Source: an uncultured Acidobacteriota bacterium (GTDB lineage: Bacteria; Acidobacteriota; Thermoanaerobaculia; UBA5066; Gp7-AA6). From it: DNA of 64,000 nt. This document shows, piece by piece, positions 22,063-38,747 of the stretch. The notes under the pieces were generated by a model that searched no databases, was not told the origin of the DNA, and worked only from the letters and a program-made list of their open reading frames with translations. Each line of letters starts with the position of its first letter. Positions within the stretch are counted from its first letter, which is position 1. Where the stretch lies: the NCBI GenBank assembly GCA_963764715.1, contig CAVXTP010000022.1, positions 512,001 to 576,000 on the forward strand, written 5' to 3'. Both the position numbers and the translations under genes were made by a program.

Positions 22063-22096
22063 CCGCGCGCGCCCGCGCGCCGGCGCCCCGGCGCTC

Positions 22097-23485: not shown

Positions 23486-23504
23486 GCCCGAATCTTGACA
23501 CGGC

Positions 23505-24731
23505 TCAGGATGCGGCGGCGGGGCGCGCCTTCCAGGAGACGTAGGGCCGGGCGAGCAGGCGAAGGGCCGAGAGCTTCCCCTCGTACAGCCGCCCGGCGAG
23601 CGAGCTCGGAACGAGCCCCCGGGCCTCCTCCGGCTGAACGACGAGCGACACTTCGATCGGCAGGATCCCGATCGGAAGCCCGGCGTCGCGGCAGGCCTCG
23701 TAGAGATGGGCGAAAACTTCCCGCATGGCGCCGGGGTCGGGGGGCGCCTCGTGCTCGAGCTCGCTCCCGATCGTCGGCCGGAAGATGCAGACCGTGGGAA
23801 ACGCTCCGGCCTCGACGATGCGGTCGATCCCGCGCATCGTCGCCTGGATCGGCTCGAGACCGGCGATGATCTCGCCCGAGACGCGGCCCCGCCCGAGCTT
23901 CTTCGCGGTGTACTCCATCGCCTCGAAGAACCCCTCCTGGCCGACCGACCGCGCCTTTCCAGGGCAGATCAGCTCGAACCAGCGGGGATCCTCGAGCTCG
24001 TAGCAGAACGAGAAGTGGTCCGTGCCGGCCTCGATCAGCGCGTCGTACTCCGAGAACTTGTTCCGCGGGACGGGGTGGGCCTGGACGCCGATGAATCCCC
24101 CGACCTCCGCGCGAATCGCCCGCACGTACGGCTCGCACTGGCGAAGGCCGTGGATCGGCTCGAGCCGGTCGACCTCCTCGAAGTGGTAGCCCGTGTTGAG
24201 GTGGGTGAAGACCGAGCCCGACTCGTCCCGGGCGGCGCGGGCGACCTCGACGACGTCCTCGACCTTCTTGCGCGCCTGCTCGTTGACGCCGACGTTCTTT
24301 CCGGTGGTGCAGAAGCGGCAGGCCTCGTTCCGGGCCCAGTACAGGCACGCGTTCGAGACGTACACCCCGAGGTAGTTGCCCTGCAGGACGCCGATGCGGT
24401 TCATCGGGATGCCCGAGGAGGTGGAGCGGCTGTACCAGGCGGGCTCCTCGGGGATCACCACCGGGTAGGACTCGCGGTCCCGGTCGTCGACGACGCAATA
24501 GCCGGTTTCCGTCCGGACGAGCTCGAACGGCGACGTCCACGCGAAGACCTCGACGACGGGCACGTTGACCCAGATCGGCTTGCGGCTCGAGGGAATGACG
24601 ATCTCGAGGCCCGAGCCGAGACCAGCGCGGGTCCGCGAGATCCGCCGGCCGTCCTGCTCGACGGTCGAGTTCTCCGGAAGCCGCAGGCCCCGGCAGAAAA
24701 GCTCGATTTCCAGTTCGACGGGCGACAACAC
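23505..24731 (-). CDS. Radical SAM protein (MSMEG_0568/biotin-synthase-related type, function unknown)
   Basis: RTRAGLGSG N-terminus and CLYWARNEACRFC (Cx8Cx2C). GTG 24731 is preferred over TTG 24740 because TAGCTT lies 7 nt upstream. Confidence 0.8.
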   Translation of the reverse strand: MLSPVELEIELFCRGLRLPENSTVEQDGRRISRTRAGLGSGLEIVIPSSRKPIWVNVPVVEVFAWTSPFELVRTETGYCVVDDRDRESYPVVIPEEPAWYSRSTSSGIPMNRIGVLQGNYLGVYVSNACLYWARNEACRFCTTGKNVGVNEQARKKVEDVVEVARAARDESGSVFTHLNTGYHFEEVDRLEPIHGLRQCEPYVRAIRAEVGGFIGVQAHPVPRNKFSEYDALIEAGTDHFSFCYELEDPRWFELICPGKARSVGQEGFFEAMEYTAKKLGRGRVSGEIIAGLEPIQATMRGIDRIVEAGAFPTVCIFRPTIGSELEHEAPPDPGAMREVFAHLYEACRDAGLPIGILPIEVSLVVQPEEARGLVPSSLAGRLYEGKLSALRLLARPYVSWKARPAAAS

Positions 24732-24766
24732 CGATTTCAAGCTAGAGCCTGCCCGAACCGGGCGCC

Positions 24767-24780
24767 ATGATGCAAATCAT
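24767..24780. promoter_or_regulatory. Crp/Fnr-type box ATGATGCAAATCAT (radical SAM promoter)
   Basis: Centred 42.5 nt upstream of GTG 24731 on the minus strand. Confidence 0.72.
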
Positions 24781-24841
24781 CCAGATGGAGCGAGAGCTCA
24801 CGCCGGCGTGAACCGCAAAAATCGGTGAAATCGAGCCGGAC

Positions 24842-24855
24842 ATGACGGGCATCAT
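24842..24855. promoter_or_regulatory. Crp/Fnr-type box ATGACGGGCATCAT (nos supra-operon promoter)
   Basis: GATCGT -10-like element at 24879-24884; first ATG at 24898. Confidence 0.72.
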
Positions 24856-24897
24856 AAGCCCCTCACCGGCCCCCGCGGGATCGTTCGATCGAGAACG

Positions 24898-25122
24898 ATG
24901 AGCAGGCCCCCCAAGCCGACCGCCCCCCCCGCCGCACGGGAATTCCTTTCGACGGGCGAAGTCGCGCGCCTCTTCGGCGTCTCGCCGTCGGCCGTGACCC
25001 GCTGGGCGCGCACCGGGGTCCTCAAGGCCGTCCGCACGCCCGGGGGGCACTACCGATTCCGCGCGAGCACGCTGCGCCGGGCCGCGATCGAGATCCCCGA
25101 CGAGCCGCAGCGCCTGGACTGA
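24898..25122 (+). CDS. Small MerR-like/BldC-like helix-turn-helix protein
   Basis: FLSTGEVARLFGVSPSAVTRWARTGVLKAVRTPGGHYRF is a typical HTH_17/BldC pattern. Confidence 0.85.
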   Translation: MSRPPKPTAPPAAREFLSTGEVARLFGVSPSAVTRWARTGVLKAVRTPGGHYRFRASTLRRAAIEIPDEPQRLD

Positions 25123-25126
25123 CGCC

Positions 25127-27052
25127 GTGCCGATCGCCGCCCGCCTTCCCGATCTCGCCCACTGGAAAGCCCAGGTCAAGTGCCAGGCCGGCTGCCCCGT
25201 CGCGACGGACGCCGGGCGATACGTCCAGCTGATCGCCGACGGGCGCGACGAGGATGCGTTCCTCGTCGCCCGGGCGCCGAACCCCTTCGCCTCGGTCTGC
25301 GGCCGCGTCTGCGCGGCGCCCTGCGAGGACGCCTGCCGTCGGGGCGCGATCGACTCGCCGATCTCGATCCGCGCGCTCAAGCGCTTCGTGACCGAGAAGT
25401 ACGGCGTCGAGTCGATCCGGCCAGCCACCCAGGACGTCCTGCGCGACGCTCTCGTGACCGAGGGCAATCGCTACGCCGGGCACCTTCCCGTGCATCCCCT
25501 CTCGGGAAACGGCGGGAAAGCGCGCGTGCGGGTCGCCGTCATCGGAGCCGGCCCGTCGGGCCTCTCGGCCGCGCACGACCTGGCCCTCCTCGGCTACGCC
25601 GTCACGGTCTTCGAAGCCTCCGAGGAGCCCGGCGGCATGATGCGCTTCGGCATCCCGGAGTACCGGCTTCCCCGCACGCTCATCCGCGCGGAGATCGAAA
25701 AGATCCTCTCGCTCGGCGTCACGCTGAAGCTCCGGACGCCGCTCTCGCCCGACTTCGGTCTCGCTGCGCTCCGGGCCGAAGGGTTCGAGTCCGTCTTCCT
25801 TTCGGTCGGAGTCTCCCGCGGCCGCGACCTGCAGGTGCCGGGCGTCGAGAAGGACGGCGTCGTCAAGGCCGTCGACTACCTCTTGAACGTCAACCGGGGC
25901 TTCCGGATGGACCTCGGGCGCCGCGTCGTCGTCATCGGCGGCGGCTTCGTCGCCTTCGACGCCGCGCGCACGGCGCTCCGTCTCGGACGGGAGGCGGACG
26001 TCGACCGCCTCGAAGCGGATTTCGACGCCGCCGACGAGAGCGCCCGGATGAAGGAGGCGCTCGACTCGGCGCGCGCGGCGATCCGGGGAGGCGCGGCCGA
26101 GGTCACGATCGTGTCGCTCGAGAGCTTCGAGGAGATGCCCGTCCTCCGGACGACCCAGGGGCACGAGGAGTTCGAGGAAGCGAAGAAAGAGGGCGTCGTA
26201 TTCGTCCCCCGGCGCGGTCCGAGCCGTTTCCTGGGCGGCAATCGCCTCGAGGCCGTCGAGCTGAAGCGGGTCGTCTCCGTCTTCGACGAGAACGGCCGGT
26301 TCGCCCCGCGCTACGACGAGACCGACCTCATCTCGCTTCCGGCCGACGCCTGCGTTTTGGCCATCGGGCAGCAGCCCGACCTCTCGTTCCTCAAGCCCGC
26401 GGACGGCGTCGCGCTGTCGCCGGGCGGGACCATCAAGGTCGACCCCGCGACCCTCGCGACCTCCGCCCCCGGCATCTTCGCGGGGGGCGACGTCGCGTTC
26501 GGCCCCCGCAACCTCATCGAGGCCGTCGCCAACGGAAAGCTCGCCGCGCGCTCGATCCACGAGCGCCTCTCGCGGGAGACCCCGCGCCTCGAGTCGCATC
26601 TGGAGGTCGAAAAGATCCCGACCGCGAGCTATCGGATGGTCGCGGGCTTCGAGATCTTCGACCGCGAGTCCCCCCCGATGCTCGACGTCGGCCGGCGCAC
26701 CGGCATCGCCGAGGTCGAAACGGGCTACGCCGAGGTCGAGGCCCGCCGCCAGGCCGCGCGGTGCCTCGTCTGCCACGTCCAGACGATCTACGACCCGGAG
26801 AAGTGCGTCCTCTGCAACCGCTGCGTGGACATCTGCCCCGAATACTGCCTGTCGATCGTTCCCTTCGAGGCGCTCGACCTGCCCGCCGAGGAGCGCGCCG
26901 CGCTCGCGGCCCGCGCGGAGGCCGACGGGCTGCCGCTCTCGGCCATGGTCAAGGACGACGAGCGCTGCATCCGGTGCGGCCTCTGCGCGATCCGCTGCCC
27001 GACCGACGCGATGACGATGGAGCGCTTCTCGATCACGGAGCGATTCCGGTGA
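25127..27052 (+). CDS. NAD(P)H-dependent FAD/FeS oxidoreductase (GltD/NfnB/DsrL-like) with C-terminal 2x[4Fe-4S] domain
   Basis: CQAGCP...CGRVCAAPCEDACRR; GAGPSG; GGMMRFGIPEYRLP; GGGFVAFD; FAGGD; CVLCNRCVDICP and CIRCGLCAIRCP. Confidence 0.88.
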   Translation: MPIAARLPDLAHWKAQVKCQAGCPVATDAGRYVQLIADGRDEDAFLVARAPNPFASVCGRVCAAPCEDACRRGAIDSPISIRALKRFVTEKYGVESIRPATQDVLRDALVTEGNRYAGHLPVHPLSGNGGKARVRVAVIGAGPSGLSAAHDLALLGYAVTVFEASEEPGGMMRFGIPEYRLPRTLIRAEIEKILSLGVTLKLRTPLSPDFGLAALRAEGFESVFLSVGVSRGRDLQVPGVEKDGVVKAVDYLLNVNRGFRMDLGRRVVVIGGGFVAFDAARTALRLGREADVDRLEADFDAADESARMKEALDSARAAIRGGAAEVTIVSLESFEEMPVLRTTQGHEEFEEAKKEGVVFVPRRGPSRFLGGNRLEAVELKRVVSVFDENGRFAPRYDETDLISLPADACVLAIGQQPDLSFLKPADGVALSPGGTIKVDPATLATSAPGIFAGGDVAFGPRNLIEAVANGKLAARSIHERLSRETPRLESHLEVEKIPTASYRMVAGFEIFDRESPPMLDVGRRTGIAEVETGYAEVEARRQAARCLVCHVQTIYDPEKCVLCNRCVDICPEYCLSIVPFEALDLPAEERAALAARAEADGLPLSAMVKDDERCIRCGLCAIRCPTDAMTMERFSITERFR

Positions 27053-27063
27053 AGGAGCCGAAG

Positions 27064-27570
27064 ATGACCGAGACCAAGGACCGCCGGGAGTTCCTCTTGA
27101 AGATCGGCATCGGGAGCGGGATCGCCGCCCTCGGCGCGCAGACCGTCGCCTCGATGCGGTCCCTCGTCCCGAACGTCTCGTACGACGCCCCGACGACCGT
27201 CAAGATCGGCGCGCCGAACGACTTTCCGGACGGCCTGCAGTTCCTGCCGGACCAGCGCCTCTACGTCTTCCGGGACGGCCGGACGTTCCACGCGATCTCG
27301 GCGGTCTGCACGCACCTCGGCTGCACCGTCCGCGCGGAGGCCCTCGCGAAGATCGAGACGGCGACGGTCGACGGCCAGCCGCTCCGGCTGACCCACCGGT
27401 TCCTCTGCCCGTGCCACGGCTCCCGGTACAACGGCGACGGCACGAACGTCTCCGGTCCCGCCCCGAAGCCCCTGACCTGGTTCCACCTGTCCGTCGCCCC
27501 CGAGGACGGCCAGCTCGTCGTCGACCTCGCCCGTCCCGTCGACCGCGACTTCCGCCTGACCGTGGCCTGA
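27064..27570 (+). CDS. Rieske [2Fe-2S] subunit of a Rieske/cytochrome b complex
   Basis: Tat-like DRREFL anchor; CTHLGC and CPCHGSRY boxes. Confidence 0.93.
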   Translation: MTETKDRREFLLKIGIGSGIAALGAQTVASMRSLVPNVSYDAPTTVKIGAPNDFPDGLQFLPDQRLYVFRDGRTFHAISAVCTHLGCTVRAEALAKIETATVDGQPLRLTHRFLCPCHGSRYNGDGTNVSGPAPKPLTWFHLSVAPEDGQLVVDLARPVDRDFRLTVA

Positions 27571-27580
27571 AGGAGACCGC

Positions 27581-28963
27581 ATGAGCGCCAAGCCCGAAAA
27601 GACCCAGCCTCCCGCCGCTCCGGGCGTGCACCCGCGGCGCTGGTGGAGCTTTCGTCCCGCCTCCGACCGGCAGGCCGGCGACGCGATCGTGTCCAACTTC
27701 ATGCTGCACTGGTTCCCGGCCAAGAGCTTCAAAGCCTCGATGGCGTGGAGCTACTCCTTCTGGCTCGGCACGGTCTCCGCGGCGCTCCTCTTCCTGCTCG
27801 TCCTCTCGGGCCTGCCGCTCCTCTTCCTCTACATCCCCTCGGTCGAGCGCGCCTACGCCTCGGTCAAGGACATCGAGTACGTCATCACGTTCGGCTCGTG
27901 GATCCGCGCGGTGCACCGGATCTCGGCGCACCTGATGGTGGCCGCGGTCTTCCTCCACCTCGTCCGGGTCTTCCTGACCGGCGCCTACAAGAACGGCGTC
28001 GTGAGGGGGGCCGGAGGGGACCAACGGTCCCCCCTTCATGGAAGCGGCCAGAAGCGGCAATGGAACTGGGTCATCGGCGTCGTGATGCTGCTCCTGACCC
28101 TCTTCCTCTCGTTCACCGGGTACCTCCTTCCCTGGGACCAGCTCGCCTACTGGGCGGTCACGGTCGGAACCAACATCGCCTCCTCCGTCCCCTACGTCGG
28201 CCCCGCGATCCGGGAGCTCCTGATCGGGGGACGCACGATCGAGCAGGCGACGCTCATCCGGTTCTACGTCCTCCACGTCCTCTTCCTGCCGATGCTCATC
28301 GGCGTCCTCTTCGGCTACCACATGTGGCGCGTCCGGAAGGACGGCGGGCTCGCCCGCGCCGACGGCGCGCGGCTCGCGGAATCCAAGACCGACGCCCCTC
28401 CCTCGAAGTCCAAGACGTACACGCTCCTCGGCATCGCCCGGGGGACGTCGCCGCACGTGAAGGCCTCGACGCTCGAGGCCCCCGAGACGACCGTCAACTC
28501 CGTCCCGGACCTGACGCGCCGCATCGCGATCGTGATCCTCGGGACGATCGCGCTCGTCGGCATCCTCTCGGTCTTCGTCCGCTCGCCGCTCGAGGAGCCG
28601 GCGAACCCGCTGATCACGCCGAACCCCGCCAAGGCGCCCTGGTATTTCCTGTGGCTCCAGGAAATCGTGACCGACACGACGGTCCACATCGGCTCCTTCA
28701 CGATCAACGGCGCGTTCCTCGGCGGGGTCCTGCTGCCGGGCGCGCTCCTCGCCCTGATGACCATCTGGCCGTGGCTCGACCGGAGCCCCGCCGCCGCGAC
28801 GGGCGCCTGGTTCGCGAAGACCCGCCGCCGGCAGAACCTCCTCTTCCTCCTTCTCGTCGCGGCCGTGCTCGCCCTGACGGTCGTCGGCACCTTCCTGCGC
28901 GGCCCCTACTGGCACTTCTACTGGCCCTGGCAGCCCTGGCCCGAGCTGCCCTCGAGGATCTGA
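27581..28963 (+). CDS. Cytochrome b (fused b6 + subunit IV type)
   Basis: Heme ligands HRISAHLMVAAVFLH and LHVLFLPMLIGVLFGYH; TGYLLPWDQ; PEWY-equivalent KAPWYF. Confidence 0.93.
   Translation: MSAKPEKTQPPAAPGVHPRRWWSFRPASDRQAGDAIVSNFMLHWFPAKSFKASMAWSYSFWLGTVSAALLFLLVLSGLPLLFLYIPSVERAYASVKDIEYVITFGSWIRAVHRISAHLMVAAVFLHLVRVFLTGAYKNGVVRGAGGDQRSPLHGSGQKRQWNWVIGVVMLLLTLFLSFTGYLLPWDQLAYWAVTVGTNIASSVPYVGPAIRELLIGGRTIEQATLIRFYVLHVLFLPMLIGVLFGYHMWRVRKDGGLARADGARLAESKTDAPPSKSKTYTLLGIARGTSPHVKASTLEAPETTVNSVPDLTRRIAIVILGTIALVGILSVFVRSPLEEPANPLITPNPAKAPWYFLWLQEIVTDTTVHIGSFTINGAFLGGVLLPGALLALMTIWPWLDRSPAAATGAWFAKTRRRQNLLFLLLVAAVLALTVVGTFLRGPYWHFYWPWQPWPELPSRI
28001..28039. repeat. 39-bp palindromic element in frame inside cytochrome b
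   Basis: GTGAGGGGGGCCGGAGGGGACCAACGGTCCCCCCTTCAT with inner stem GGGGACC-AAC-GGTCCCC; codons atypical for this gene. Confidence 0.6.
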
Positions 28964-28964
28964 C

Positions 28965-30191
28965 ATGGAACAGAGAACCGATTCCCCCTATCCGAAGAAG
29001 GACCGGCCGATCCTCGCGATCGTCGGCGTGCTGCTCGTCGTCTCGACGGTCCTCTTCGCGTGGAGCGACCGCAAGCACGACTGGCGCTACTACCAGTACG
29101 CCTTCCGCGCCCAGGTGACCGAGAAGCTCGGGGCGGAGAAGGCCGCGACCATCCCGAAGGGCGTCCAACAGATCTGGGTCTCCGAGATGCGCCGCGCCGA
29201 CCGCTGCATCACCTGTCACCAGGCGATGCTCTGGAAGGGCTTCGAGAAGGCCGAGAACCCCTACAAGTCGCACCCCGTCGAGCCCCTCAAGGGGCATCCA
29301 ATCGAGAAGTACGGCTGCACCGCCTGCCACGGCGGCCAGGGCTGGGCCATCGACGACGTCGCCGCGCACGGCCCGGTCGAGCACTGGGAGGAGCCCCTCC
29401 TGGGGTCGCAGCTCGGCGAGGCCTACACGCTCTCGGCCCAGAAGTCGGCGCTCATGCAGATGAACTGCAACGTGTGCCACCGCTTCGACCGCGAGACGAA
29501 GGGGGCCGACGAGATCAACCTGGCGAAGAAGCTCGTCCTCGAGAAGGGCTGCCGCGCCTGCCACGTGATCAACGGCCGCGGCGGAACGATCGGCCCCGAC
29601 CTCACGTGGGTCGGCGACAAGGCACCCGAGCAGTACGAGTACGGGCGGCTCTCGGGCCAGAAGAGCGCCTACGCCTGGCACGTCGCCCACTTCAAGGACC
29701 CCCGGGCCCTCGTGCCGGAGACGGTCATGCCGAACTTCCACTTCACCACCCGCGACGCCCAGGCGCTGGCGATGCTGGCGCTCTCGTGGCGGCGCGCGCC
29801 GATTCCGGCCGACTACCGGCCGGGGCTCCCCCGCACCGACCCCCAGACCCCGGAGGAGATCGCCGAAGAGCAGCGGATGAAGACCGGCCCCGGCGCCTGG
29901 TTCGTCAAGACGGGCTGCTTCGTCTGCCACTCCATCCAGTCGCTCGGGGTCAAGAGCCCGGCCCAGATCGGGCCCGATCTCTCGACGGCGGTCGAGGACA
30001 CGCAGGCGCGCTTCGGCCGCACGGTCGACGACTTCCTCCGCGAGCCGACGGGAACGATGGCCGTCGTGCTGTCGCGCCAGATCGTGCTGACGCCGCAGGA
30101 GAAGGAGATCGCCGTCCAGAAGCTGCGGGAGGCGTTCGCCGAGCACCAGAAACAGAAGGCCGAGGGAAAACCCGAAGCCGGCGGCCATTGA
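28965..30191 (+). CDS. Membrane-anchored pentaheme cytochrome c
   Basis: N-terminal TM helix; five CxxCH motifs (CITCH, CTACH, CNVCH, CRACH, CFVCH). Confidence 0.92.
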   Translation: MEQRTDSPYPKKDRPILAIVGVLLVVSTVLFAWSDRKHDWRYYQYAFRAQVTEKLGAEKAATIPKGVQQIWVSEMRRADRCITCHQAMLWKGFEKAENPYKSHPVEPLKGHPIEKYGCTACHGGQGWAIDDVAAHGPVEHWEEPLLGSQLGEAYTLSAQKSALMQMNCNVCHRFDRETKGADEINLAKKLVLEKGCRACHVINGRGGTIGPDLTWVGDKAPEQYEYGRLSGQKSAYAWHVAHFKDPRALVPETVMPNFHFTTRDAQALAMLALSWRRAPIPADYRPGLPRTDPQTPEEIAEEQRMKTGPGAWFVKTGCFVCHSIQSLGVKSPAQIGPDLSTAVEDTQARFGRTVDDFLREPTGTMAVVLSRQIVLTPQEKEIAVQKLREAFAEHQKQKAEGKPEAGGH

Positions 30192-30222
30192 AACGGTAAC
30201 CCGAGAGGGAAGGAGAACGACG

Positions 30223-32106
30223 ATGAGTCAGACGAGGAAGAGCTGGATCACATGGAGCGCTCTCGCGGTCTTCGCGGTCGCCGCCGCGCTCGCCGGCCGC
30301 TGCGCGCCGAGCGCGCCGAAGGCCGGGGGCAAGAAGGGCGCCCCCGCCGGCGCGTCGGACCTCGCGGTCGCGGCGCAGAAGACCTACGTCCCGCCCGGAG
30401 ACCTCGACGAGTACTACATGTTCGCCTCGGGCGGACACTCGGGCCAGGTCTACGTCTACGGGATCCCGTCGATGCGCCACCTCTCGACGATCCCGGTCTA
30501 CACGCCCTACCCCGCCACCGGCTACGGCTTCGACGACGAGTCGAAGGCGATGCTCGGCGGCCGGCTGACGTGGGGCGACGTTCACCATCCGTCCCTCTCG
30601 GAGACGGGCGGCGACTACGACGGACGCTGGCTCTTCGTCAACGACATGAACGGCCGGGTCGCCCGCATCGACCTGCGCGACTTCAAGACCAAGCAGATCT
30701 TCGGACCCATGCCCAACATCTCGGGCAATCACGGTTCGGCTTTCGTCACGCCCAACACCGAGTACTCGGTCATGGCCTCGCGCTTTTCGATCCCGATCCC
30801 CAAGGGAACCGCCGCCCCGATCGACAATTACGCCACCGACTACAAGGGCGTCGTCGCCGCCGTGAAGATCGACCCGAAGACCGGCGAGATGACGCAGGGC
30901 TTCGAGATTCTCATGCCTCCCTTCGACTACGACCTCGGCGACGCCGGGAAAAAGGCCTCGGACGGCTGGATGTTCTTCACCTGCTACAACTCCGAGCGCG
31001 CGACCGGAAAGCTCGAGGTCACGGCCTCGCAGCGGGACCGGGACTACATCGCCGCCGTCGACTGGAAGGCCGCCGAGAAGGCGATCGCCGAGGGCAAGGG
31101 CGACATGATCGGCGGCGTCAAGGTCCTCGATCCGCGGAAGGTCCCCGGGCTCGTCTACTTCATGCCCTGCGGAAAGTCCCCCCACGGCGTCGACGTCTCG
31201 CCGGACGGCAAGTACATCATCGGCTCGGGCAAGCTCCAGGGCGTGACGACGGCCTTCAATTTCGAGAAGGTCCAGACCGCCATCCGCAACAAGGACTTCA
31301 CGGGCGACGAGGACGGGATCCCGGTCCTCAAGTACGAGTCGATCAAGGACGCGGAAGTCCCGGTCGGGCTCGGACCGCTCCACACCCAGTTCGGACCCAA
31401 CGGCGAGTGCTACACCTCGCTCTTCGTCGACAGCGCGATCGCCAAGTGGAAGCTCGGGACCTGGGAAGTGATCGACAAGGTCCCGATGTCGTACTCCATC
31501 GGGCACCTGGCGGCGGCCGAGGGCGACACCGTCTCTCCGGACGGCAAGTACCTCGTCGGACTGAACAAGCTGTCCCACGGCCGGCATCTCTCGGTCGGGC
31601 CGTCCCAGCCCGAGTCGTCGCAGCTCGTCGACATCTCCGAAGAGAAGATGAAGATCCTCTACGACGCCTTCACGGAGCCGGAGCCTCATTACGCGCAGAT
31701 CATCAAGGCCGACAAGATCAAGCCGATCGAGGTCTATCCGAAGGACGAGAACAAGAACCCGAACGCGATCTGGGACGTCAAGGATGCGGGCGTCACGCGC
31801 AAGGGCAGCGAGGTCCTCGCGAAGGTCGTCCTCGTCCGCTCGACGATCTCGCCGACGGCGATCGAGGTTGAAGAGGGCGACACGGTCAAGGTGGTCATGA
31901 CCAACATCGAGCAGACGACCGATGAGCTCCACGGGTTCGGCCTCCTCGACTACAACATCAACATCGTCTGCGACCCCGGCGAGACCAAGACCGTCACCTT
32001 CAAGGCCGACAAGCCGGGCGTCTTCCCCTACTACTGCACGAATTTCTGCTCCGCCCTCCACCAGGAGATGCAGGGCTACCTCATCGTCAGGCCCAAAAAG
32101 GGCTGA
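30223..32106 (+). CDS. nosZ: Nitrous oxide reductase, clade II (Sec-dependent, no C-terminal cytochrome c)
   Basis: SGGHSGQ; CuZ His motifs DVHH, GNHG, SPHG, GPLHT, IGHL, EPH; CuA HGF...CTNFCSALHQEM; no twin-Arg signal. Confidence 0.97.
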   Translation: MSQTRKSWITWSALAVFAVAAALAGRCAPSAPKAGGKKGAPAGASDLAVAAQKTYVPPGDLDEYYMFASGGHSGQVYVYGIPSMRHLSTIPVYTPYPATGYGFDDESKAMLGGRLTWGDVHHPSLSETGGDYDGRWLFVNDMNGRVARIDLRDFKTKQIFGPMPNISGNHGSAFVTPNTEYSVMASRFSIPIPKGTAAPIDNYATDYKGVVAAVKIDPKTGEMTQGFEILMPPFDYDLGDAGKKASDGWMFFTCYNSERATGKLEVTASQRDRDYIAAVDWKAAEKAIAEGKGDMIGGVKVLDPRKVPGLVYFMPCGKSPHGVDVSPDGKYIIGSGKLQGVTTAFNFEKVQTAIRNKDFTGDEDGIPVLKYESIKDAEVPVGLGPLHTQFGPNGECYTSLFVDSAIAKWKLGTWEVIDKVPMSYSIGHLAAAEGDTVSPDGKYLVGLNKLSHGRHLSVGPSQPESSQLVDISEEKMKILYDAFTEPEPHYAQIIKADKIKPIEVYPKDENKNPNAIWDVKDAGVTRKGSEVLAKVVLVRSTISPTAIEVEEGDTVKVVMTNIEQTTDELHGFGLLDYNINIVCDPGETKTVTFKADKPGVFPYYCTNFCSALHQEMQGYLIVRPKKG

Positions 32107-32119
32107 CCCGTCCCGAGAA

Positions 32120-32152
32120 CCGGGCGGCGGAACTCCTCCCCCCGCCGCCCGG
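32120..32152 (+). terminator. 11-bp GC hairpin after nosZ (partial terminator or mRNA stabiliser)
   Basis: CCGGGCGGCGG-N11-CCGCCGCCCGG with no U-tract. Confidence 0.6.
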
Positions 32153-32170
32153 AACTCACAGGAGATCCCC

Positions 32171-32821
32171 ATGAAGGCCATCCTCGAACGGAGCAACCGG
32201 GCGCTCGAACTGCCGCTGGACCTGCTCCCGCGACTGCTGCTTCTGGTGGCCGCGCTGCTTCTCGTCCCGACTTACCTGATGCCGCTCTGGAAGCTGACGA
32301 TGTTCGCGCCGCAGTACCCGGACGGCCTGCGCCTGAACATCCACAGCTACAAACTCGAGGGCGGCAACGCCGGCCAGGACGTCAAGGAAATCAACATCCT
32401 CAATCACTACATCGGGATGAGGGACCTGACGACGGCCGACTTCACCGAATTCAAGTGGATGCCGTTCGTCATCGGCATGCTGGGACTCCTCTTCCTTCGC
32501 GCCCTCTTTCACGGGAGAATCGGTGATCTGATCGACGTCGTCGTGCTGTACCTGTACTTCGGCCTCTTCTCGCTGTGGTCCTTTGGCTACAAGCTCTACT
32601 CGTACGGCCACAACCTCGCGCCGACCGCGTCGGTGAAGGTCCCGCCCTTCATGCCTCCGCTCTTCGGGTACAAGAAGCTCGCCAACTTCGAGGTCTACTC
32701 GTACCCCGCCGCCGCGTCTTACGCCCTCGCCGCCGTCGGCGTGGTCCTTCTCGCCGCCCTCGTGCTGGCCCGGCGCGAGGCCCGCCTCGAGGAGCACGAG
32801 GACGCCCGGACGGCCGGATGA
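32171..32821 (+). CDS. nosB: NosB membrane protein
   Basis: PLW...APQYPDGL...INILNHYIGM...EF.WMP...YGHNL; directly after clade II nosZ. Confidence 0.88.
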   Translation: MKAILERSNRALELPLDLLPRLLLLVAALLLVPTYLMPLWKLTMFAPQYPDGLRLNIHSYKLEGGNAGQDVKEINILNHYIGMRDLTTADFTEFKWMPFVIGMLGLLFLRALFHGRIGDLIDVVVLYLYFGLFSLWSFGYKLYSYGHNLAPTASVKVPPFMPPLFGYKKLANFEVYSYPAAASYALAAVGVVLLAALVLARREARLEEHEDARTAG

Positions 32822-34173
32822 TCCTGCCCGCCGTCGCCCTCCTCCTCGCCCTGTCCGCAGAGGAAATGACTTCCGCGACGGCGGCCTCCGTCGAGGGACG
32901 TCCCGCCGCCGGCGCCGTCTCGCCCCTCCAGGGGCGTGTCGACGCGGCCCCCGCGGGGTCCGTCCTCGAGATCGGGCCCGGCACCTACCGCGGCGACCTC
33001 TACATCGATCGTTCCATCACGCTCTCGGGACGCGGCCGCCCGAGGCTTCTGGGCTCGGGCACGGGAAGCGTCGTCCGCATCCGCGCCGCCGGCGTCGTCG
33101 TCCAGGGGTTCGACGTCGACGGGGGCGGAGGCGGGGATCTCGGGCGGGACGCCTCGGGAATCCACGTCGCGGCGAAGAACGTCACCGTGCGCGACTGCCG
33201 AATCACCAACGCCCTCTTCGGCGTGTACCTGCGCGAGGCCGACGGGTCGGCCGTCGAGCGCACCTCGATCCGGGGGATCCCGGGCAAGGACCCGGGCGAG
33301 AAAGGCTCCGGTATCCACGTCTGGAACACGAACGGCTTCCGCCTCGTCGGCAACACGATCGTCGACGTCCGCGACGGCTTCTACATCCAGTCCTCCGCGC
33401 ACGGCGTCATCCGCGGCAACACGGCGCGGGACCTGCGCTACGGGCTGCATTACATGTTCACGGACGACAACCTCTTCGAGGACAACACGTTCGAGAACGG
33501 CGCCGCCGGCACGGCGATCATGTACTCGAAGCGCATCGTCTTCCGGCGCAACCGCTTCCTGCACAACCGGGGGTTCGCGTCCGTGGGACTGCTGTTCAAG
33601 GCCTGCGAGGACGTCACGGCCGAGTCGAACCTCATCGCCGACAACGCGCGGGGGATCTTTCTCGAGGGGTCCTATCGCAATCTCTTCAAGGACAACGTCA
33701 TCGCCGAGTCCGACGTCGCGATCGTCCTCTACGACTCGTGCGCCGACAACCGCTTCGTCGGGAATCTCTTCCTCGGCAACATGACGCCGCTGACGCTCGT
33801 GGGCCGCCGGACCGACACCCGGTTCGACGGCAACTACTGGTCGGGCAACGGCGAGCCCGACCTCGACGGCGACGGCCGTAGCGACCGGCCCTATCGCCTC
33901 TCCTCGGTCTTCGACCACTTCCGCGGGAACCTGACGGCGGCCGACCTCTTCACGTCGAGCCTCGCCGCGTCCGCCCTCTCGGCCGCCGAGCGGGCGTTCC
34001 CCGTCCTCGAGCCCGTGACGGTGGAAGACCGGTCGCCGCTCGCCCGGCCGCCCGTCCTGCCATCCGTCCCGCGCCCGCCCCTTGCCCCTCGCGGCCGCAA
34101 CGCCGGCGCCCTCGCCGCCTGCGCCGCCGCCGTCGTTCTCGGGAGCGTCGCCGTCTGGGAAGGCCGCCGATGA
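32818..34173 (+). CDS. nosD: N2O reductase maturation protein NosD
   Basis: Beta-helix repeats, GSGIHVWN, RDG, RYGLHYMF, GNYWS and DLDGDG motifs. Confidence 0.93.
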   Translation: MILPAVALLLALSAEEMTSATAASVEGRPAAGAVSPLQGRVDAAPAGSVLEIGPGTYRGDLYIDRSITLSGRGRPRLLGSGTGSVVRIRAAGVVVQGFDVDGGGGGDLGRDASGIHVAAKNVTVRDCRITNALFGVYLREADGSAVERTSIRGIPGKDPGEKGSGIHVWNTNGFRLVGNTIVDVRDGFYIQSSAHGVIRGNTARDLRYGLHYMFTDDNLFEDNTFENGAAGTAIMYSKRIVFRRNRFLHNRGFASVGLLFKACEDVTAESNLIADNARGIFLEGSYRNLFKDNVIAESDVAIVLYDSCADNRFVGNLFLGNMTPLTLVGRRTDTRFDGNYWSGNGEPDLDGDGRSDRPYRLSSVFDHFRGNLTAADLFTSSLAASALSAAERAFPVLEPVTVEDRSPLARPPVLPSVPRPPLAPRGRNAGALAACAAAVVLGSVAVWEGRR

Positions 34174-35069
34174 TCCGGTTCAAGGACTTCTCGAAGACGT
34201 TCGGCGGGAATCGCGCCGTGGACGGAGTGACGTTCTCGGTCGAGCGCGGCGAGGCCGTCGCGCTCCTCGGGCCCAACGGCTCGGGCAAGACGACCACGCT
34301 GAAGGCCGCCGCCGGCCTCATCCGGCCGACGTCCGGCGAGGTTCGCGTGGGCGAGCCGCCCCGCTCGCCGCAGGAGCCCGAGGCGCGAAACGCCATCTCG
34401 TACCTCCCCCAGAAGGTCACGTTTCCGGAAGCCGTCACGGGCCGCGAGATCGTCGACTTCTATCGCCGGCTCCGCAACGTCGATCCCGTCCGGGTCGACG
34501 AGGTCTTCCACTTCGCCTCGTTGAACGGCGCCTCCGCGCGTCCGGTCGGCACTTACTCGGGCGGCATGCTGCAGCGCCTGGGTCTCGCGATCGCGGTCCT
34601 TCCCCAGGCGCCGATCCTGCTGCTCGACGAGCCGACCGCGGCCCTCGATCCCGACGGCCTCTGCGCGTTCTACGGCCTCGTCGAGCGGCGCCGCCGGGAA
34701 GGGCACACGCTGCTCTTCACGTCGCACCAGCTCGGCGACGTCGAGCGGCTCGCCGACCGTTTCGTGCTCCTCGTGGAGGGCCGCCTCGCGGCGTCGCTGA
34801 CCCAGCGCGAGCTCGCGGACCGCCTGTCGCAGCGCGGCGTCCTGCGCCTGCGCCTCGAGCGCCGCGTCCCGGGCCTCGTCGAGCAGCTCCGCGCATTTTC
34901 ACCGGCCGCCGTCTGGGCGGCGGGCGAGCTCGTCATCGCCGGCCCCGCGGCCGACCGTCCCCGGATCCTCGACGTCGTGCGCGCGGCGGGCGGGCAGATC
35001 GTCGGCCTCGCGGCCGAGGAGGGCCGGCTCGACCTTCTCTATCGCGAGCTCGTGCGAGGCGAGGCGTGA
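34170..35069 (+). CDS. nosF: ABC ATPase NosF
   Basis: GPNGSGKTT, YSGGMLQR and LLLDEPT motifs; nos context. Confidence 0.9.
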   Translation: MIRFKDFSKTFGGNRAVDGVTFSVERGEAVALLGPNGSGKTTTLKAAAGLIRPTSGEVRVGEPPRSPQEPEARNAISYLPQKVTFPEAVTGREIVDFYRRLRNVDPVRVDEVFHFASLNGASARPVGTYSGGMLQRLGLAIAVLPQAPILLLDEPTAALDPDGLCAFYGLVERRRREGHTLLFTSHQLGDVERLADRFVLLVEGRLAASLTQRELADRLSQRGVLRLRLERRVPGLVEQLRAFSPAAVWAAGELVIAGPAADRPRILDVVRAAGGQIVGLAAEEGRLDLLYRELVRGEA

Positions 35070-35527
35070 GAGCCCGAGGGCTCCTCGCCGCCCTCGCCAT
35101 GGTCCCGATGATCGCCTGTGCCGGCGGCGACCCGGCGCCGGCCGCCCTCGACACCCGCCACGAAACCTGCCGCTCGTGCCGGATGCCGGTTTCGGACCCG
35201 CATCTGGCGGCCCAGCTCACGGCCCCCGGCGAGGAACCGGCCTTCTTCGACGACATCGGCTGCCTGCGCGACTACGTTCGCGAGCACACGCCCGAGGCGG
35301 GGGCCGTCGCCTGGGTCGCCGATCACCGGACCGCCGGCTGGGTTCGAGCGGCCGCCGCGACGTATGCGCTCTGTCCGACGATCGAGACGCCGATGGGGTC
35401 GCACCTGATCGCCTGGGCCGACGCACCCTCGCGGCAGTCGGACTCCGCGGTGAAGAACTGTGCCTCGCGGTCCGCACCGGAAATCTTCGGAGCGAGCCCT
35501 CCCGACGGCCACAAGAGAGGCGGTTGA
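35066..35527 (+). CDS. nosL: Copper chaperone lipoprotein NosL
   Basis: Lipobox-like MIAC; CRSCRM, FDDIGC and TPMGS motifs. Confidence 0.9.
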   Translation: MRARGLLAALAMVPMIACAGGDPAPAALDTRHETCRSCRMPVSDPHLAAQLTAPGEEPAFFDDIGCLRDYVREHTPEAGAVAWVADHRTAGWVRAAAATYALCPTIETPMGSHLIAWADAPSRQSDSAVKNCASRSAPEIFGASPPDGHKRGG

Positions 35528-35529
35528 GA

Positions 35530-35979
35530 ATGGAAACCAAGATCCCCCAGTCGATCCAGATGGAGCACGAGGAGCTCCACGAGCAGCTTGCCCGCGCGAT
35601 CAAGGCGGGCGGGAAGACGGGCGAAGCGGCCCGCGCCGTCATGAAGGTGCTCCAGCCGCACATGGCGCGGGAAGAGGAGATCGTCGCGCCCTGTCTCGCC
35701 CTGCTCCGGCCGGCCGCCGAGGGCACGCTGACCGCGGAGATGGCCGAGGCCCTGTCGCGTGTCGCGCCCCTGAAGGCCGAGATGCCGCGCATGCTGGAGG
35801 AGCACGGTCGGATCGTGGACGCGCTGCGCGAGCTCATCCGGGTGGCCACCGAGGAGAACCAGCCCGGGTTCGCGAAGCTCGCCCAGATGCTCGTGGCCCA
35901 CGCCCAGGAAGAAGAGGAGATCCTCTACCCCGCCGCCATTCTGCTGGCGGAGGTTCTCAAGGCGAGGTTCGGCGCATGA
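35530..35979 (+). CDS. Hemerythrin-like (HHE) domain protein
   Basis: EHEELH, HMAREEE, EEHGRI and HAQEEEEILYP motifs. Confidence 0.82.
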   Translation: METKIPQSIQMEHEELHEQLARAIKAGGKTGEAARAVMKVLQPHMAREEEIVAPCLALLRPAAEGTLTAEMAEALSRVAPLKAEMPRMLEEHGRIVDALRELIRVATEENQPGFAKLAQMLVAHAQEEEEILYPAAILLAEVLKARFGA

Positions 35980-36821
35980 CCGCTCCCGACGCGAGGTCGG
36001 TCGTCCTTCTCTGCGCGCACCAGGAGCTGGTCCTCGCGGTCCGGTCGCGCTGGACCCAGATCTTCGCGGCCGTCTTCGCCGCGCTGTCGCTGGCGGTGGC
36101 CGCGTCCGGCTACGTGCTGTCGGGCGGCGCCGGATTGCAGGACTTCGCGAGGACCGCGGCCTCGCTCGTCCAGCTCGTTCTCCTCCTGACTCCCCTGACC
36201 TCGCTCGTGATCGGCGTCCTCGCGCTCGCCCCCGAGCGCGGCGCCGCGGAAATGCTCTTCTCGCAGCCGGTCTCGCGGCGCGCGATCCTGCTCGGCCGCC
36301 TCCTCGGCCTCTTCGCCGCCCTCGCCGCGGCGCAGGCGATCGGCCTCGGGGGAGCCGGCCTTCTCGTCTTCTCCCGCGCCGGAGGCACCGGGGCGGCCGG
36401 CTACGGCATCCTGTTCCTCGGCGCCCTCGTGCTGACCGCCGTCTTCCTCGGAATCGCCGCGCTGCTCGTCTCCGGAGGGGTCGGCCGACGCGCGAAGTCC
36501 CTCGCCGTCGCCCTGATCGTCTGGTTCGGCGCCGTCGTCCTCTTCGACGTCGCGGCCCTCGGTGTCGCGTCCCTGCTCGGCTCGACCGCCGCTTCGCGGC
36601 TTCTCATCGCGGCCGTGCTGGTCAATCCCATCGACGCTTTCCGCACGGGCGCCCTCCTCGCAATCCAGGGCACGACGGCGTTCGGCGGCGCGTCCCTCGC
36701 CCTCCTGCGATTCACGCGGGGCCCCGGCGGAGCCGCGGCGCTGCTCGGGCTGTCCGCGGTCCTCTGGCTCGTGCTGCCGGCGGCCTTCGCCGCCCGACGG
36801 CTCGAACGCGCCGACCTCTGA
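35976..36821 (+). CDS. nosY: ABC permease NosY
   Basis: Multi-TM protein with E.LFSQPVSR and NPIDAFR; nos context. Confidence 0.88.
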   Translation: MTAPDARSVVLLCAHQELVLAVRSRWTQIFAAVFAALSLAVAASGYVLSGGAGLQDFARTAASLVQLVLLLTPLTSLVIGVLALAPERGAAEMLFSQPVSRRAILLGRLLGLFAALAAAQAIGLGGAGLLVFSRAGGTGAAGYGILFLGALVLTAVFLGIAALLVSGGVGRRAKSLAVALIVWFGAVVLFDVAALGVASLLGSTAASRLLIAAVLVNPIDAFRTGALLAIQGTTAFGGASLALLRFTRGPGGAAALLGLSAVLWLVLPAAFAARRLERADL

Positions 36822-36825
36822 GGTC

Positions 36826-37281
36826 CTAGATCCGCTCTTCGCGCCGGGTCGCGTGGAGGACCTGGCCGACGAGGATCAGCAGTCCGACGTCCCGCAGGAT
36901 CGCGAGCTTCATGTCGTTGAGGCGCTCGGCGTCGGTCTTCTGGACCTTCGCGGTGCCGAAGCAGCCGCAGTCGACGGGCCTCCCGCGCGCGAGGTTGATC
37001 GACAGGGCGACGATGAACACGAGGAGGAGGATCCCGAGAACCCGGGCCGCGGAACGCCTCGCGATCCCGAGGAAGAGGGCGATTCCCGCCACGACCTCGA
37101 GCCAGGGCAGGATGAGCGCCAGCGCGTTGACCGCCGCGCCGGGCAGGAGCCCGTAGTTGTGGATCTCGTGGGCGAAGCCGGGCGGGTCCGAGATCTTGAA
37201 GAAGCCGGCGACGGCGAAGAACGCCGCCAGCACGAACTGGACGCGGACCGTGAGCCAGGGCGAGGAAAGCCCGCCGCTCAA
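36826..37281 (-). CDS. MauE/DoxX family membrane protein
   Basis: KISDP..FA..I.NY, LPWLE and DCGCFG motifs; TTG start overlaps the rhodanese stop. Confidence 0.82.
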   Translation of the reverse strand: MSGGLSSPWLTVRVQFVLAAFFAVAGFFKISDPPGFAHEIHNYGLLPGAAVNALALILPWLEVVAGIALFLGIARRSAARVLGILLLVFIVALSINLARGRPVDCGCFGTAKVQKTDAERLNDMKLAILRDVGLLILVGQVLHATRREERI

Positions 37282-37865: not shown

Positions 37866-37899
37866 CCCGGCATCTTAGCCGAGGCGGCCTTCCGTTCGG

Positions 37900-38604: not shown

Positions 38605-38671
38605 GGGACCTCCCTCCGGAGCGGCCCTCCGCCCCGCCGGGACAGGATCGCAGGCCGGCCGCCGCGGGCCT

Positions 38672-38685
38672 ATGACCGGGATCAT
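38672..38685. promoter_or_regulatory. Crp/Fnr-type box ATGACCGGGATCAT
   Basis: GATCCT -10-like element (minus strand, 38644-38649) at the same spacing as the other boxes. Confidence 0.7.
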
Positions 38686-38747
38686 CCCGGCGGGCCTGAT
38701 GCGTTTGCATCTATGCGGACGCCGAATCGCGCCCGAGGCTAGCCCCA

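Follow-up and report, generated by a model that had tools for sequence, protein, structure and literature searches.

Organization of the nos locus

The DNA analyzed here, referred to as the window, is a stretch of 64,000 nucleotides from an uncultured Acidobacteriota bacterium (Thermoanaerobaculia; UBA5066; Gp7-AA6), corresponding to positions 512,001 to 576,000 of the forward strand of contig CAVXTP010000022.1 (GenBank assembly GCA_963764715.1). It carries an operon in which the gene of an iron-sulfur (FeS) flavoprotein, here called ox, is joined to genes for a Rieske protein, a cytochrome b and a pentaheme cytochrome c and to the nos genes of nitrous oxide (N2O) reduction. The window has a G+C content of about 70% and contains many spurious open reading frames (ORFs), from which family searches singled out 11 real genes between positions 25127 and 36821, all on the plus strand. 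They were arranged in the order ox-Rieske-cyt b-pentaheme c-nosZ-nosB-nosD-nosF-nosL-hemerythrin-nosY, with intergenic gaps of -4 to 64 bp, and were flanked by genes on the opposite strand. Scans, which are uninformative at 70% G+C, found no terminator-like site on the plus strand within the operon and no promoter-like site. The tightly packed operon proposed in a preliminary description of this DNA was borne out by the gene order and the gaps.

The first four genes encode the oxidoreductase Ox (25127-27052), the Rieske [2Fe-2S] protein (27064-27570), a fused cytochrome b6 and subunit IV (27581-28963) and a membrane-anchored pentaheme cytochrome c (28965-30191). They are followed by nosZ (30223-32106), whose product is of the Sec-type (clade II), since it scored 910 bits with the Sec-dependent model TIGR04246 (cut-off 625) and only 441, below the cut-off, with the TAT-type model TIGR04244. 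NosZ had no CxxCH motif and no cytochrome c domain, as had been noted beforehand, and its N-terminus lacked a twin arginine. The next gene (32171-32821) encodes a membrane protein of 216 amino acids with four transmembrane (TM)-like segments, which gave no Pfam or NCBIfam match, lies directly 3' of nosZ and is 44-82% identical across the nos-linked loci described below; it was called nosB-like from its position, following usage in the literature, there being no family model for it. The remaining genes were nosD (32818-34173; TIGR04247, 385 bits with a cut-off of 300; PF05048), nosF, encoding an ABC ATPase (34170-35069; PF00005), nosL (35099-35527; PF05573, 25.2 bits with a cut-off of 24), whose start codon may be located further upstream, a gene for a hemerythrin-domain protein (35530-35979; PF01814) and nosY, encoding an ABC-2 permease (35976-36821; PF12679). 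The positions of nosF, nosL and nosY were conserved in related loci, and the hemerythrin gene between nosL and nosY was found elsewhere in only one (L047) of the 74 fetched loci searched. A Sec-type NosZ, a gene in the nosB position, family matches for nosD, nosF, nosL and nosY and the absence of nosR characterize the cluster as clade II.

The genome of the host is 96.8% complete, and no NosR/NosH-type Fer4_5 domain (PF12801) was detected anywhere in it, in agreement with the lack of nosR and nosH first noticed at the locus. NirK was not found in the genome and the matches to the NirS family were weak (33 bits at best); this gene content suggests an N2O reducer that does not denitrify. Genes for making menaquinone by the futalosine route and NuoF-like complex I genes were present.

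Linkage of ox to nosZ across genomes

The association of ox with nosZ was analyzed first among 40 genomes of the same order, one of which (G030) was counted only as a negative. A TIGR04246-type nosZ was present in nine of them, and in all nine the same contig and strand carried, about 3.3-3.6 kb upstream of it, an ox with 75-92% identity to the window protein; in G013, ox was split into three pieces of 87-95% identity. In two genomes (G026 and G032), ox was missing and the nosZ was more distant. Pieces of a nos-type ox (73-79% identity), with no nosZ found, were observed in G029 (contig C20, 12108-12452), G010 (C602), G039 (C83) and G009 (C135), and may be remnants of lost operons or reflect assembly gaps.

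To extend the analysis to the phylum, 401 Acidobacteriota genomes of at least 80% completeness, the host genome among them, were drawn evenly. Matches to nosZ (E <= 1e-100) were obtained in 40 of the 401, and 32 of these exceeded the family cut-off. Among these 32, ox lay upstream on the same contig in 17, a 77%-identical ox was present on another contig in one (G441), and no ox match at E <= 1e-100 was obtained in the other 14. Ten nos clusters fetched from these 14 genomes had no ox, Rieske, cytochrome b or pentaheme cytochrome c gene beside nosZ, and their NosZ proteins were 46-60% identical to that of the window. Since the clusters without ox lack all four genes and carry a divergent NosZ, the four upstream genes appear to be gained and lost together and to travel with one NosZ subclade. 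The sequences thus argue that ox is not a chance neighbor of nosZ.

A wider search, with a profile made from 20 diverse ox homologues, yielded 63 loci from species-representative genomes, which were compared by tblastn with the eleven proteins of the window. The full order ox-Rieske-cytb-5heme-nosZ-nosB-D-F(-L-Y) was found in 28 of the 63 loci. The Acidobacteriota among them belonged to Thermoanaerobaculia, Vicinamibacterales and Terriglobia, and the others were Anaeromyxobacter sp. PSR-1, other Anaeromyxobacteraceae, Ignavibacteriales, Bacteroidota, Ca. Kryptoniota, Calditrichaceae and Ca. Coneutiohabitans. In Anaeromyxobacter sp. PSR-1 (L054), the order was ox-Rieske-cytb-5heme-nosZ-B-D-F-L-Y, with identities of 60-83%. 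In all loci where ox was at least 55% identical and nosZ was missing, the contig stopped before the place where nosZ would be expected. The Rieske gene directly followed ox in 57 of the 63 loci, and the contigs of the remaining six ended at or just past ox, so that all 57 informative loci agreed. For these and the following counts, ORF starts in the fetched loci were set by script, one locus (L068) was left out of the alignments on account of an internal stop, and counts over relatives are not independent.

Across 67 loci, the identity of ox to the window protein tracked that of cytochrome b (r = 0.96) and of the Rieske protein (r = 0.97), which, because kin share ancestry, is a sign of co-inheritance and not of independent events. 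Additionally, in a quick IQ-TREE of 66 complete ox proteins, the 29 nos-linked proteins (29 of 29) together with six from short contigs formed one clade (SH-aLRT 99), and the nos-free ox proteins fell in other clades, sister to it. The survey of the four-gene module called for in the preliminary description therefore found ox conserved with both the Rieske/cytochrome b genes and nosZ, so that the lack of conservation named there as a refutation did not materialize.

The ox-Rieske-cytochrome b module without nos

Copies of ox with 42-49% identity were found in seven of the relatives, where they were joined to genes for a Rieske protein, a cytochrome b and a multiheme cytochrome c and had no nos genes nearby. 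Nos-free loci of this composition were also found in Geothrix campi, Verrucomicrobiota, Binatota and Ignavibacteriota. They presented two layouts, one with a split b6 of about 250 amino acids and a c-type cytochrome of about 650-710, and the other with a fused cytochrome b of about 425 amino acids and a cytochrome of about 463; the commonest number of CxxCH motifs across all nos-free loci was eight, and most of these modules were stand-alone operons. Homologues of ox were present in 86 of the 401 Acidobacteriota, against 40 with nosZ. Since ox is more frequent than nosZ and is joined to Rieske/cytochrome b genes in lineages that have no nosZ, its conserved partner is the Rieske/cytochrome b module and not NosZ. 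These comparisons give solid grounds to regard the window operon as dedicated to nos within a widespread family, whose members inherit a predicted NAD(H) flavoprotein together with a Rieske/cytochrome b/multiheme c module.

Several other features of these loci were recorded. In one genome (G033, contig C8, locus L040) the order was Rieske-cytb-multiheme c-COX1-FixO-small ORF-ox, with cbb3-type oxidase genes inside the operon, and in another (G040, contig C34, L041) a protein of 1245 amino acids with a molybdopterin domain followed the module. A gene coding for 440-575 amino acids, similar between loci by size, preceded the nos-free modules of six loci; it had no significant Pfam match and faint porin or lipoprotein hints, and could encode an outer-membrane component. 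The stretches concerned were 7754-9954 in L097, 8015-9988 in L085, 7516-9243 in L094, 7930-9435 in L107, 8279-9610 in L088 and 6816-8225 in L036. A CarboxypepD_reg-like gene also preceded the module in two loci. Furthermore, a group of 24 genomes around a metagenome-assembled genome labeled "Planctomycetia" (L105, G041) gave ox matches of 40-59% identity and no sign of being anammox bacteria; eight genomes of this group (L112-L119, in G050-G062) had ox at 54-59% identity.

The oxidoreductase

Ox is a protein of 641 amino acids, in which Pfam matches located a Fer4_20 domain at residues 17-91, a Pyr_redox_2 domain at 135-470 and two Fer4 stretches at 554-629. The scores with PF14691 (60.5 bits) and PF07992 (107 bits) both exceeded their cut-offs and place Ox among the NfnB/GltD-type flavoproteins, with FAD and NAD(H) sites. 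Hydropathy analysis showed no TM-like or signal segment. The absence of a signal peptide, the Rossmann region, the N-terminal FeS cysteines and the C-terminal 2x[4Fe-4S] domain, all read from the sequence beforehand, were recovered by these analyses. The best NCBIfam match, NF009410, remained under its cut-off, and all the equivalog models shown (glutamate synthase small subunit, GltA, YgfK and others) scored far below theirs, for instance 246 against 472 for TIGR01316; hence, Ox is not one of these named enzymes. A protein-cluster search gave nothing beyond generic FAD-oxidoreductase clusters, most of them from Acidobacteriota, Pseudomonadota and Actinomycetota. In a representative of 1069 amino acids (P0123), residues 437-1063 show the whole Ox architecture and follow an N-terminal extension of 436 residues. 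Relatives of solved structure in the PDB were the NfnA/NfnB-type proteins, the NfnB-like (StnC-like) N-terminal part of the proteins of about 1170 amino acids in 9bov/8oh5, GltD and DPD.

Residues 511-552 of Ox (...RCLxC) aligned to the N-terminus of NfnB, and because of this alignment C546 and C549 are proposed as cluster ligands. They probably complete two NfnB-type clusters which, together with the C-terminal domain, would give four FeS clusters in all. The cluster cysteines of Ox were invariant and, with the FAD and the NAD site, make up this four-cluster inventory. The string C546-x-x-C549-H550 had been considered as a heme-c motif, and was ruled out as such by the alignment of the segment with the RCLxC cluster ligands of NfnB.

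The NAD(P) site was compared with that of the solved relatives. The sequence YRR(S/T)xxEMPA was present in four of the five PDB homologues aligned (the alignment of 5jca misses this stretch), and Ox reads SLESFEEMPV, with L331 and E332 invariant in 36 sequences. The YRR motif following the second Rossmann strand has a role in NADPH binding, and by the general rule for Rossmann folds a site such as the SLE of Ox goes with NADH over NADPH. With SLE in place of YRR and both residues invariant, the nucleotide is predicted to be NADH, and the site of Ox looks NADH-type, not NADPH-type.

Rieske protein, cytochrome b and pentaheme cytochrome c

The Rieske protein (168 amino acids; PF00355) has an RR-type N-terminus and the cluster-binding boxes CTHLGC (box I) and CPCHGSRY (box II). 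The spacer between the boxes comprised 27 residues in 29 of 29 nos-linked proteins and 12 in 24 of 34 others; this spacer, longer by 15 residues, is specific to the nos-linked clade. The best matches in the PDB were 9rk4 (8.8e-19) and 9rk3 (3.9e-17), which are the Kuste4569 and Kustd1480 proteins of Kuenenia, ahead of the PetC of the b6f complex. The Ser/Tyr pair of box II was found in 25 of 30 nos-linked Rieske proteins, as in Kuste4569, and the nos-free proteins mostly had Ser/Phe, as in Kustd1480.

Cytochrome b is a single fused protein of 460 amino acids (Pfam Cytochrome_B and Cytochrom_B_C) with seven TM-like segments, four in the b6 part and three in the subunit IV part. Its heme histidines, H112/H126 (14 apart) and H232/H247 (15 apart), were invariant in the family alignment and matched the b6 columns H86/H100 and H187/H202, which have the same 14/15 spacing. 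At the Qo-site position of RPEWYF, the protein reads KAPWYF, a sequence invariant in the ox-linked fused cytochromes b, whereas RPEWYF was retained in the ordinary Rieske/cytochrome b genes of locus L101 and of the host genome itself. The stretch FWLGT aligned to YCLGG of b6, which places a Trp at the position of the heme-cn Cys, and none of the ox-linked cytochromes b aligned had Cys in this column, where Trp, Gly or Tyr occurred instead. These alignments upheld what had been described for the two proteins, namely the GSRY of the Rieske box, the b6-type His spacing, the APWY in place of PEWY and the Trp at the Cys that binds the extra heme (ci) of b6.

The family also has an N-terminal extension of 26 residues with respect to b6, with invariant P26, H43 and P46, and a further invariant His, H117. 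The window protein has, in addition, a 19-residue insert, GVVRGAGGDQRSPLHGSGQ (residues 139-157; 27995-28051), which contains a His and lies in the cytoplasmic B-C loop. This insert had been a candidate docking or heme site and was dropped as a feature of the family, being absent from the 35 other cytochromes b examined (35 of 35), among them the 88%-identical protein of L047.

The pentaheme cytochrome c (408 amino acids; Pfam Cytochrom_C) has CxxCH motifs at residues 81, 118, 168, 196 and 318 and one N-terminal TM-like segment (16-34). Five CxxCH motifs were found in 30 of 32 nos-linked orthologues, and the protein presumably links the Rieske protein to NosZ.

The host genome also has an ordinary Rieske/cytochrome b/multiheme c locus (L001, contig C11, 77178-80717) with PEWY, YYLGG and the Rieske box CACHDGVY. 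Since this ordinary Rieske has CACHDGVY together with PEWY, the high-potential-type box is specific to the ox-linked copy. Two further cytochrome b loci were located on contigs C20 and C3 of the genome.

Association of Ox with cytochrome b

A docking model of cytochrome b (with a 36-sequence alignment, in one copy) and residues 495-641 of Ox reached an ipSAE of 0.46 (0.48, 0.42 and 0.46 in the separate runs). The runs agreed in at least 82% of the contacts, the partner had a pLDDT of at least 71, and the best of the three controls scored 0.00. On calibration, the pass mark let through 116 of the 157 solved complexes tried and 2 of the 215 mismatched pairs; among these passes, only 18 of the solved complexes, but both mismatches, scored 0.60 or less. 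For the suggested docking of the ferredoxin domain of Ox on cytochrome b, the verdict of the method was weak support, which shifts the odds a little: the score lies over the controls, but it falls in the low band and comes from a single copy of cytochrome b.

The modest score (0.46) would also suit the alternative that Ox is not a subunit at all, but a soluble flavoenzyme of the NAD(P)H/ferredoxin type that is merely co-expressed, while the Rieske protein, cytochrome b and the pentaheme cytochrome run an ordinary Q cycle to NosZ. Relatives of Ox do act in soluble complexes (Nfn, StnABC-like), the protein has no membrane segment, and the genome has no nosR/nosH-type gene, so that another source of activating electrons may be needed. 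Nevertheless, ox remains joined to Rieske/cytochrome b genes in nosZ-free lineages, as the 86 against 40 of the 401 Acidobacteriota reflect, all three docking controls gave 0.00, and a cytoplasmic enzyme cannot reach the periplasmic NosZ without a membrane partner. We therefore consider a free-standing Ox improbable.

Proposed electron flow

Taken as a whole, the sequences suggest, tentatively and with somewhat less than even confidence, that Ox, the Rieske protein, cytochrome b and the pentaheme cytochrome c form one membrane complex dedicated to NosZ, with bifurcation at the Qo site towards NosZ and NAD+. Menaquinol (MKH2) would be oxidized at the Qo site of this complex. The high-potential electron would pass from the Rieske protein through the pentaheme cytochrome to the periplasmic NosZ, and the low-potential electron would cross the membrane via hemes bP and bN, possibly with a further heme bound by His43 of the cytochrome b dimer. 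On the cytoplasmic side, the latter electron would not re-reduce the quinone but would enter the four FeS clusters and reach NAD+ through the FAD of Ox. The overall reaction would be 2 MKH2 + N2O + NAD+ → 2 MK + N2 + H2O + NADH + H+, where MK is menaquinone. In this scheme, we infer that Ox is attached to cytochrome b, which route the low-potential electron takes, which way electrons move at NAD, and that NADH is used over NADPH.

The N2O/N2 couple lies at about +1.35 V. In the accessible text of Hauser et al. (2025; PMC12954380), menaquinone is placed at about -70 mV and NAD(P) at -320 mV. Given these three potentials, the coupled reaction of quinol, N2O and NAD+ would be strongly exergonic, and since the genome has NuoF-like complex I genes, the NADH formed could re-enter the chain with proton pumping.

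The same complex may operate in reverse, with Ox as the point of entry of NADH. Electrons would then flow from NADH to the FAD, the four FeS clusters and the n-side hemes, and would reduce quinone at or near the Qi site or feed the Q cycle, which would amount to a self-contained, non-pumping NADH:NosZ oxidoreductase chain. The conservation and the cofactors fit this direction equally well. NAD(P)H is the usual electron donor of NfnB/GltD-type modules, and the SLE in place of YRR, with the invariant L331/E332, points by the Rossmann rule to NADH, the catabolic carrier of a heterotroph. On the other hand, this flow would bypass the proton-pumping complex I encoded in the genome, with a loss of energy; the same argument has been used against NADH input in Kuenenia, according to the accessible part of Hauser et al. 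(2025; PMC12954380). Nor does it account for the high-potential-type signature of the Rieske protein encoded with ox, in an organism that uses menaquinone and has an ordinary Rieske without this signature, or for the close tie of a simple NADH:quinone function to Rieske/cytochrome b genes. We rate the reversed flow as the leading alternative, possible but rather doubtful.

Bifurcation towards NAD+ itself faces several objections. A docking pass as low as 0.46 is more often wrong than right unless the pairing is likely beforehand, and one copy of cytochrome b was used where a dimer is expected. Three runs labeled as metatranscriptomes, all from the same sample, placed 9, 7 and 5 reads on positions 22000-40000, all of them only partly matching, which is too few to bear on transcription. 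The family has no heme-cn Cys, and the cytochrome b is fused and has three, not five, subunit-IV helices, unlike the anammox proteins, so the wiring on the n side may differ from that of anammox bacteria. Moreover, a heterotroph with complex I has no obvious need for NADH from quinol, and the sequence does not fix the direction of electron flow at NAD. Finally, the module is not required for N2O reduction generally, given that 14 of the 32 Acidobacteriota with a Sec-type nosZ lack it.

A third possibility starts from the G033 operon, in which the presence of cbb3-type oxidase genes (COX1, FixO) means that the ox module accompanies N2O and also O2, both of them acceptors of very high potential. 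Ox could be bound to a complex that mainly runs a normal Q cycle and serve as a relief valve or sensor, shedding electrons from over-reduced b hemes to NAD+ or sensing the NADH/NAD+ ratio, and so limiting short circuits or radical formation under a very oxidizing acceptor, only in some conditions. The hemerythrin genes in and beside the window operon, which hint at O2 or NO, would suit such a role. We nonetheless see only a small chance for it, because four FeS clusters and a FAD that are near-invariant across phyla would be a heavy investment for an occasional valve. In addition, the heme-cn Cys is kept by no member of the family, and PEWY is changed in all the members seen, which suggests that the core mechanism itself is altered.

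Flanking genes

An ORF for a DNA-binding protein of 74 amino acids related to HTH_17 and MerR (24898-25122, plus strand; Pfam HTH_17, 6.5e-12, and MerR, 7.3e-10) ends 5 bp before ox and was absent from the gene list of the preliminary description. By tblastn, the closest loci, L047 and L048, were the only ones to have it 5' of ox, and L041 had it in the opposite orientation; it is a possible local regulator. MerR-type genes also adjoin two nos-free modules (L040 and L041). The only match to an FNR-type box, with two mismatches, was the perfect palindrome ATGATGCAAATCAT at 24767-24780, about 350 bp 5' of ox, and it was discarded as a candidate site. A Crp/Fnr-family regulator (20755-22062, plus strand), with cNMP_binding and HTH_Crp_2 domains and an N-terminal extension of about 230 residues, is encoded 3 kb upstream of the operon and is a candidate nos regulator.

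An ORF of 411 amino acids (23505-24740, minus strand), divergent from the operon, matched no Pfam family at E <= 0.01. Downstream, the convergent genes at 36826-38685 (minus strand) encode a MauE/DoxX protein, a rhodanese and a DUF2249-hemerythrin protein. The hemerythrin genes, together with the MauE/DoxX and rhodanese genes around NosZ, hint at the handling of O2 and NO or of sulfur.

Earlier descriptions and significance

To our knowledge, no biological sink for N2O other than NosZ is known, and what is known of electron delivery to clade II NosZ concerns mainly the NosGH type. In its accessible text, a review from 2026 on N2O reductase names NosHG alone for this delivery (PMC13685413). The figure legends of published comparisons of nos clusters list Fe-S, Rieske, cy-b and cy-c genes (PMC11096178, PMC11237620, PMC13122619), where the Fe-S label is assumed to correspond to ox; these legends only label the genes and state no NAD(H) flavoprotein, anammox-type identification or mechanism. 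According to the accessible part of Dibrova et al. (2017), NAD(P)-binding FeS proteins accompany the cytochrome b subfamily G "in many other cases" outside anammox bacteria, and long cytochrome b genes located in "large conserved operons", whose function is unknown, make up a clade G'; nosZ and nitrous oxide are mentioned nowhere in the paper.

The literature searched, which left most subscription journals outside, contained no link of an NAD(P)H oxidoreductase-Rieske/cytochrome b module to nosZ and no bifurcation for N2O respiration. Within it, the connection of the nos module with the anammox-type complexes and the proposed mechanism are new, and the gene order and the gene labels were known. 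The "undescribed system" of the preliminary description was therefore an overstatement, as the same gene order occurs in the cultured Anaeromyxobacter sp. PSR-1 and the Fe-S, Rieske, cy-b and cy-c genes appear in published legends.

This module, with its cytoplasmic NAD(H) enzyme, serves about half (17 of 32) of the Sec-type nos clusters that were sampled from Acidobacteriota, and it is present in at least five other phyla. Anammox bacteria are slow-growing, are not known in pure culture and are hard to manipulate. Since related modules occur in the cultured Anaeromyxobacter sp. PSR-1 (nos-linked) and Geothrix campi (nos-free), their function is testable by genetics, complexome profiling and membrane assays; the main interest of these findings is that they bring anammox-type complexes within experimental reach in culturable bacteria.

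On a broader and more speculative view, to which we would give rather low credence, NAD-linked Rieske/cytochrome b complexes could be no peculiarity of anammox bacteria but a widespread respiratory device with one clade hard-wired to NosZ, in which the N2O/N2 couple pulls the bifurcation at the Qo site, every second menaquinol electron goes to NADH, and complex I returns it while pumping protons. If the bifurcation were true, about six charges would be moved per N2O by our own arithmetic, as opposed to two for a plain Q cycle, and the cell would have a novel means of capturing the large free energy of N2O reduction, which otherwise goes to waste. High growth yields have been reported for some clade II N2O reducers, and bifurcation would be a candidate reason for them. 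Its confirmation would revise the energy yields of N2O respiration and possibly the view of how competitive these N2O consumers are in soils, whereas confirmation of the NADH-input direction would reveal a compact NADH:N2O chain that bypasses complex I.

Comparison with known systems

On the Kuenenia complexes, Hauser et al. 2025 cite the earlier work of Kartal et al. 2013 and de Almeida et al. 2016. According to the accessible text of Hauser et al. 2025, Kuenenia stuttgartiensis has two Rieske/cytochrome b complexes with a cytoplasmic NAD(P) oxidoreductase, Kuste4569-4574 and Kustd1480-1485, whose subunits co-migrate, and whose Rieske proteins lie above +300 mV even though the quinone is menaquinone, at about -70 mV (Hauser et al. 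2025; PMC12954380). The AlphaFold3 models presented there have four FeS clusters leading from the FAD toward the membrane and an extra heme b on His43 of two cytochrome b (Kuste4571) monomers (PMC12954380). What these NAD(P)-reductase-bearing complexes do in anammox bacteria is, by the abstract, still unclear (Hauser et al. 2025; PMC12954380).

The window module was compared with these complexes by alignment for the Rieske protein and by published description for the oxidoreductase and cytochrome b. In both systems, a Rieske protein, a b6-like cytochrome b with subunit IV, a multiheme cytochrome c and a cytoplasmic FAD/NAD/FeS oxidoreductase are encoded together, the Rieske boxes read CPCHGS(K/R)Y or end in F, and the module serves a nitrogen-oxide acceptor of very positive potential. 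By description, the oxidoreductases share four FeS clusters leading to the FAD. An extra conserved His occurs near the N-terminus of cytochrome b (H43 in the window, His43 in Kuste4571), the two sharing the residue number. The differences are also clear. The window cytochrome b has no CxGG heme-cn motif and is fused, with three subunit-IV helices, whereas that of Kuenenia is split, with five, as published; the cytochrome c has five hemes as opposed to six or eight, and ox stands first in the gene order. The acceptor is the copper enzyme NosZ in place of an HAO-like octaheme enzyme, the host organisms live as heterotrophs and do not evidently need reverse electron flow, and the NAD site appears to be of the NADH-type instead of the NADPH-type.

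With respect to the Wolinella-type clade II systems (NosGH/NosC1C2), the window shares a Sec-type NosZ with nosB, D, F, Y and L, the lack of nosR and the delivery of menaquinol-derived electrons to NosZ via c-type cytochromes, as far as the accessible text of the review describes them (PMC13685413). It differs in lacking nosG, nosH, nosC1 and nosC2, with no Fer4_5-type protein in the genome, and in having the Rieske/cytochrome b genes inside the operon with a predicted NAD(H) flavoprotein, while the Rieske/cytochrome bc genes of the Wolinella type are, from the same partial source, separately encoded. The nos cluster of Anaeromyxobacter sp. PSR-1 (L054), by contrast, is the same system in identical order. 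The canonical b6f and bc1 complexes have in common with the window cytochrome b the four heme-b histidines, in b6 spacing, but not the PEWY motif, which is replaced by KAPWYF.

Ox, for its part, shares with the NfnB/GltD-type flavoproteins the Fer4_20 domain and the FAD and NAD(P) Rossmann domains, with E-values of 2.4e-71 to 7e-41 to the solved members, and its order of segments is that of the N-terminal 680 residues, approximately, of 9bov/8oh5. The opening segment of NfnB (...RCLxC), however, is found at residues 511-552 in Ox, which also has a conserved insert of about 33 residues (290-322) absent from all the solved relatives, the C-terminal 2x[4Fe-4S] domain, SLE at the NAD(P) site where NfnB-type proteins have YRR, and no NfnA- or GltB-like partner gene.

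The analogy with the anammox complexes, drawn in the preliminary description, gained support from the best matches of the Rieske protein, Kuste4569 and Kustd1480, and from a cofactor inventory (FAD, NAD site and four FeS clusters) that agrees with the published description. On this basis, we read the window module as a putative nos-dedicated, anammox-like, NAD(H)-linked Rieske/cytochrome b complex.

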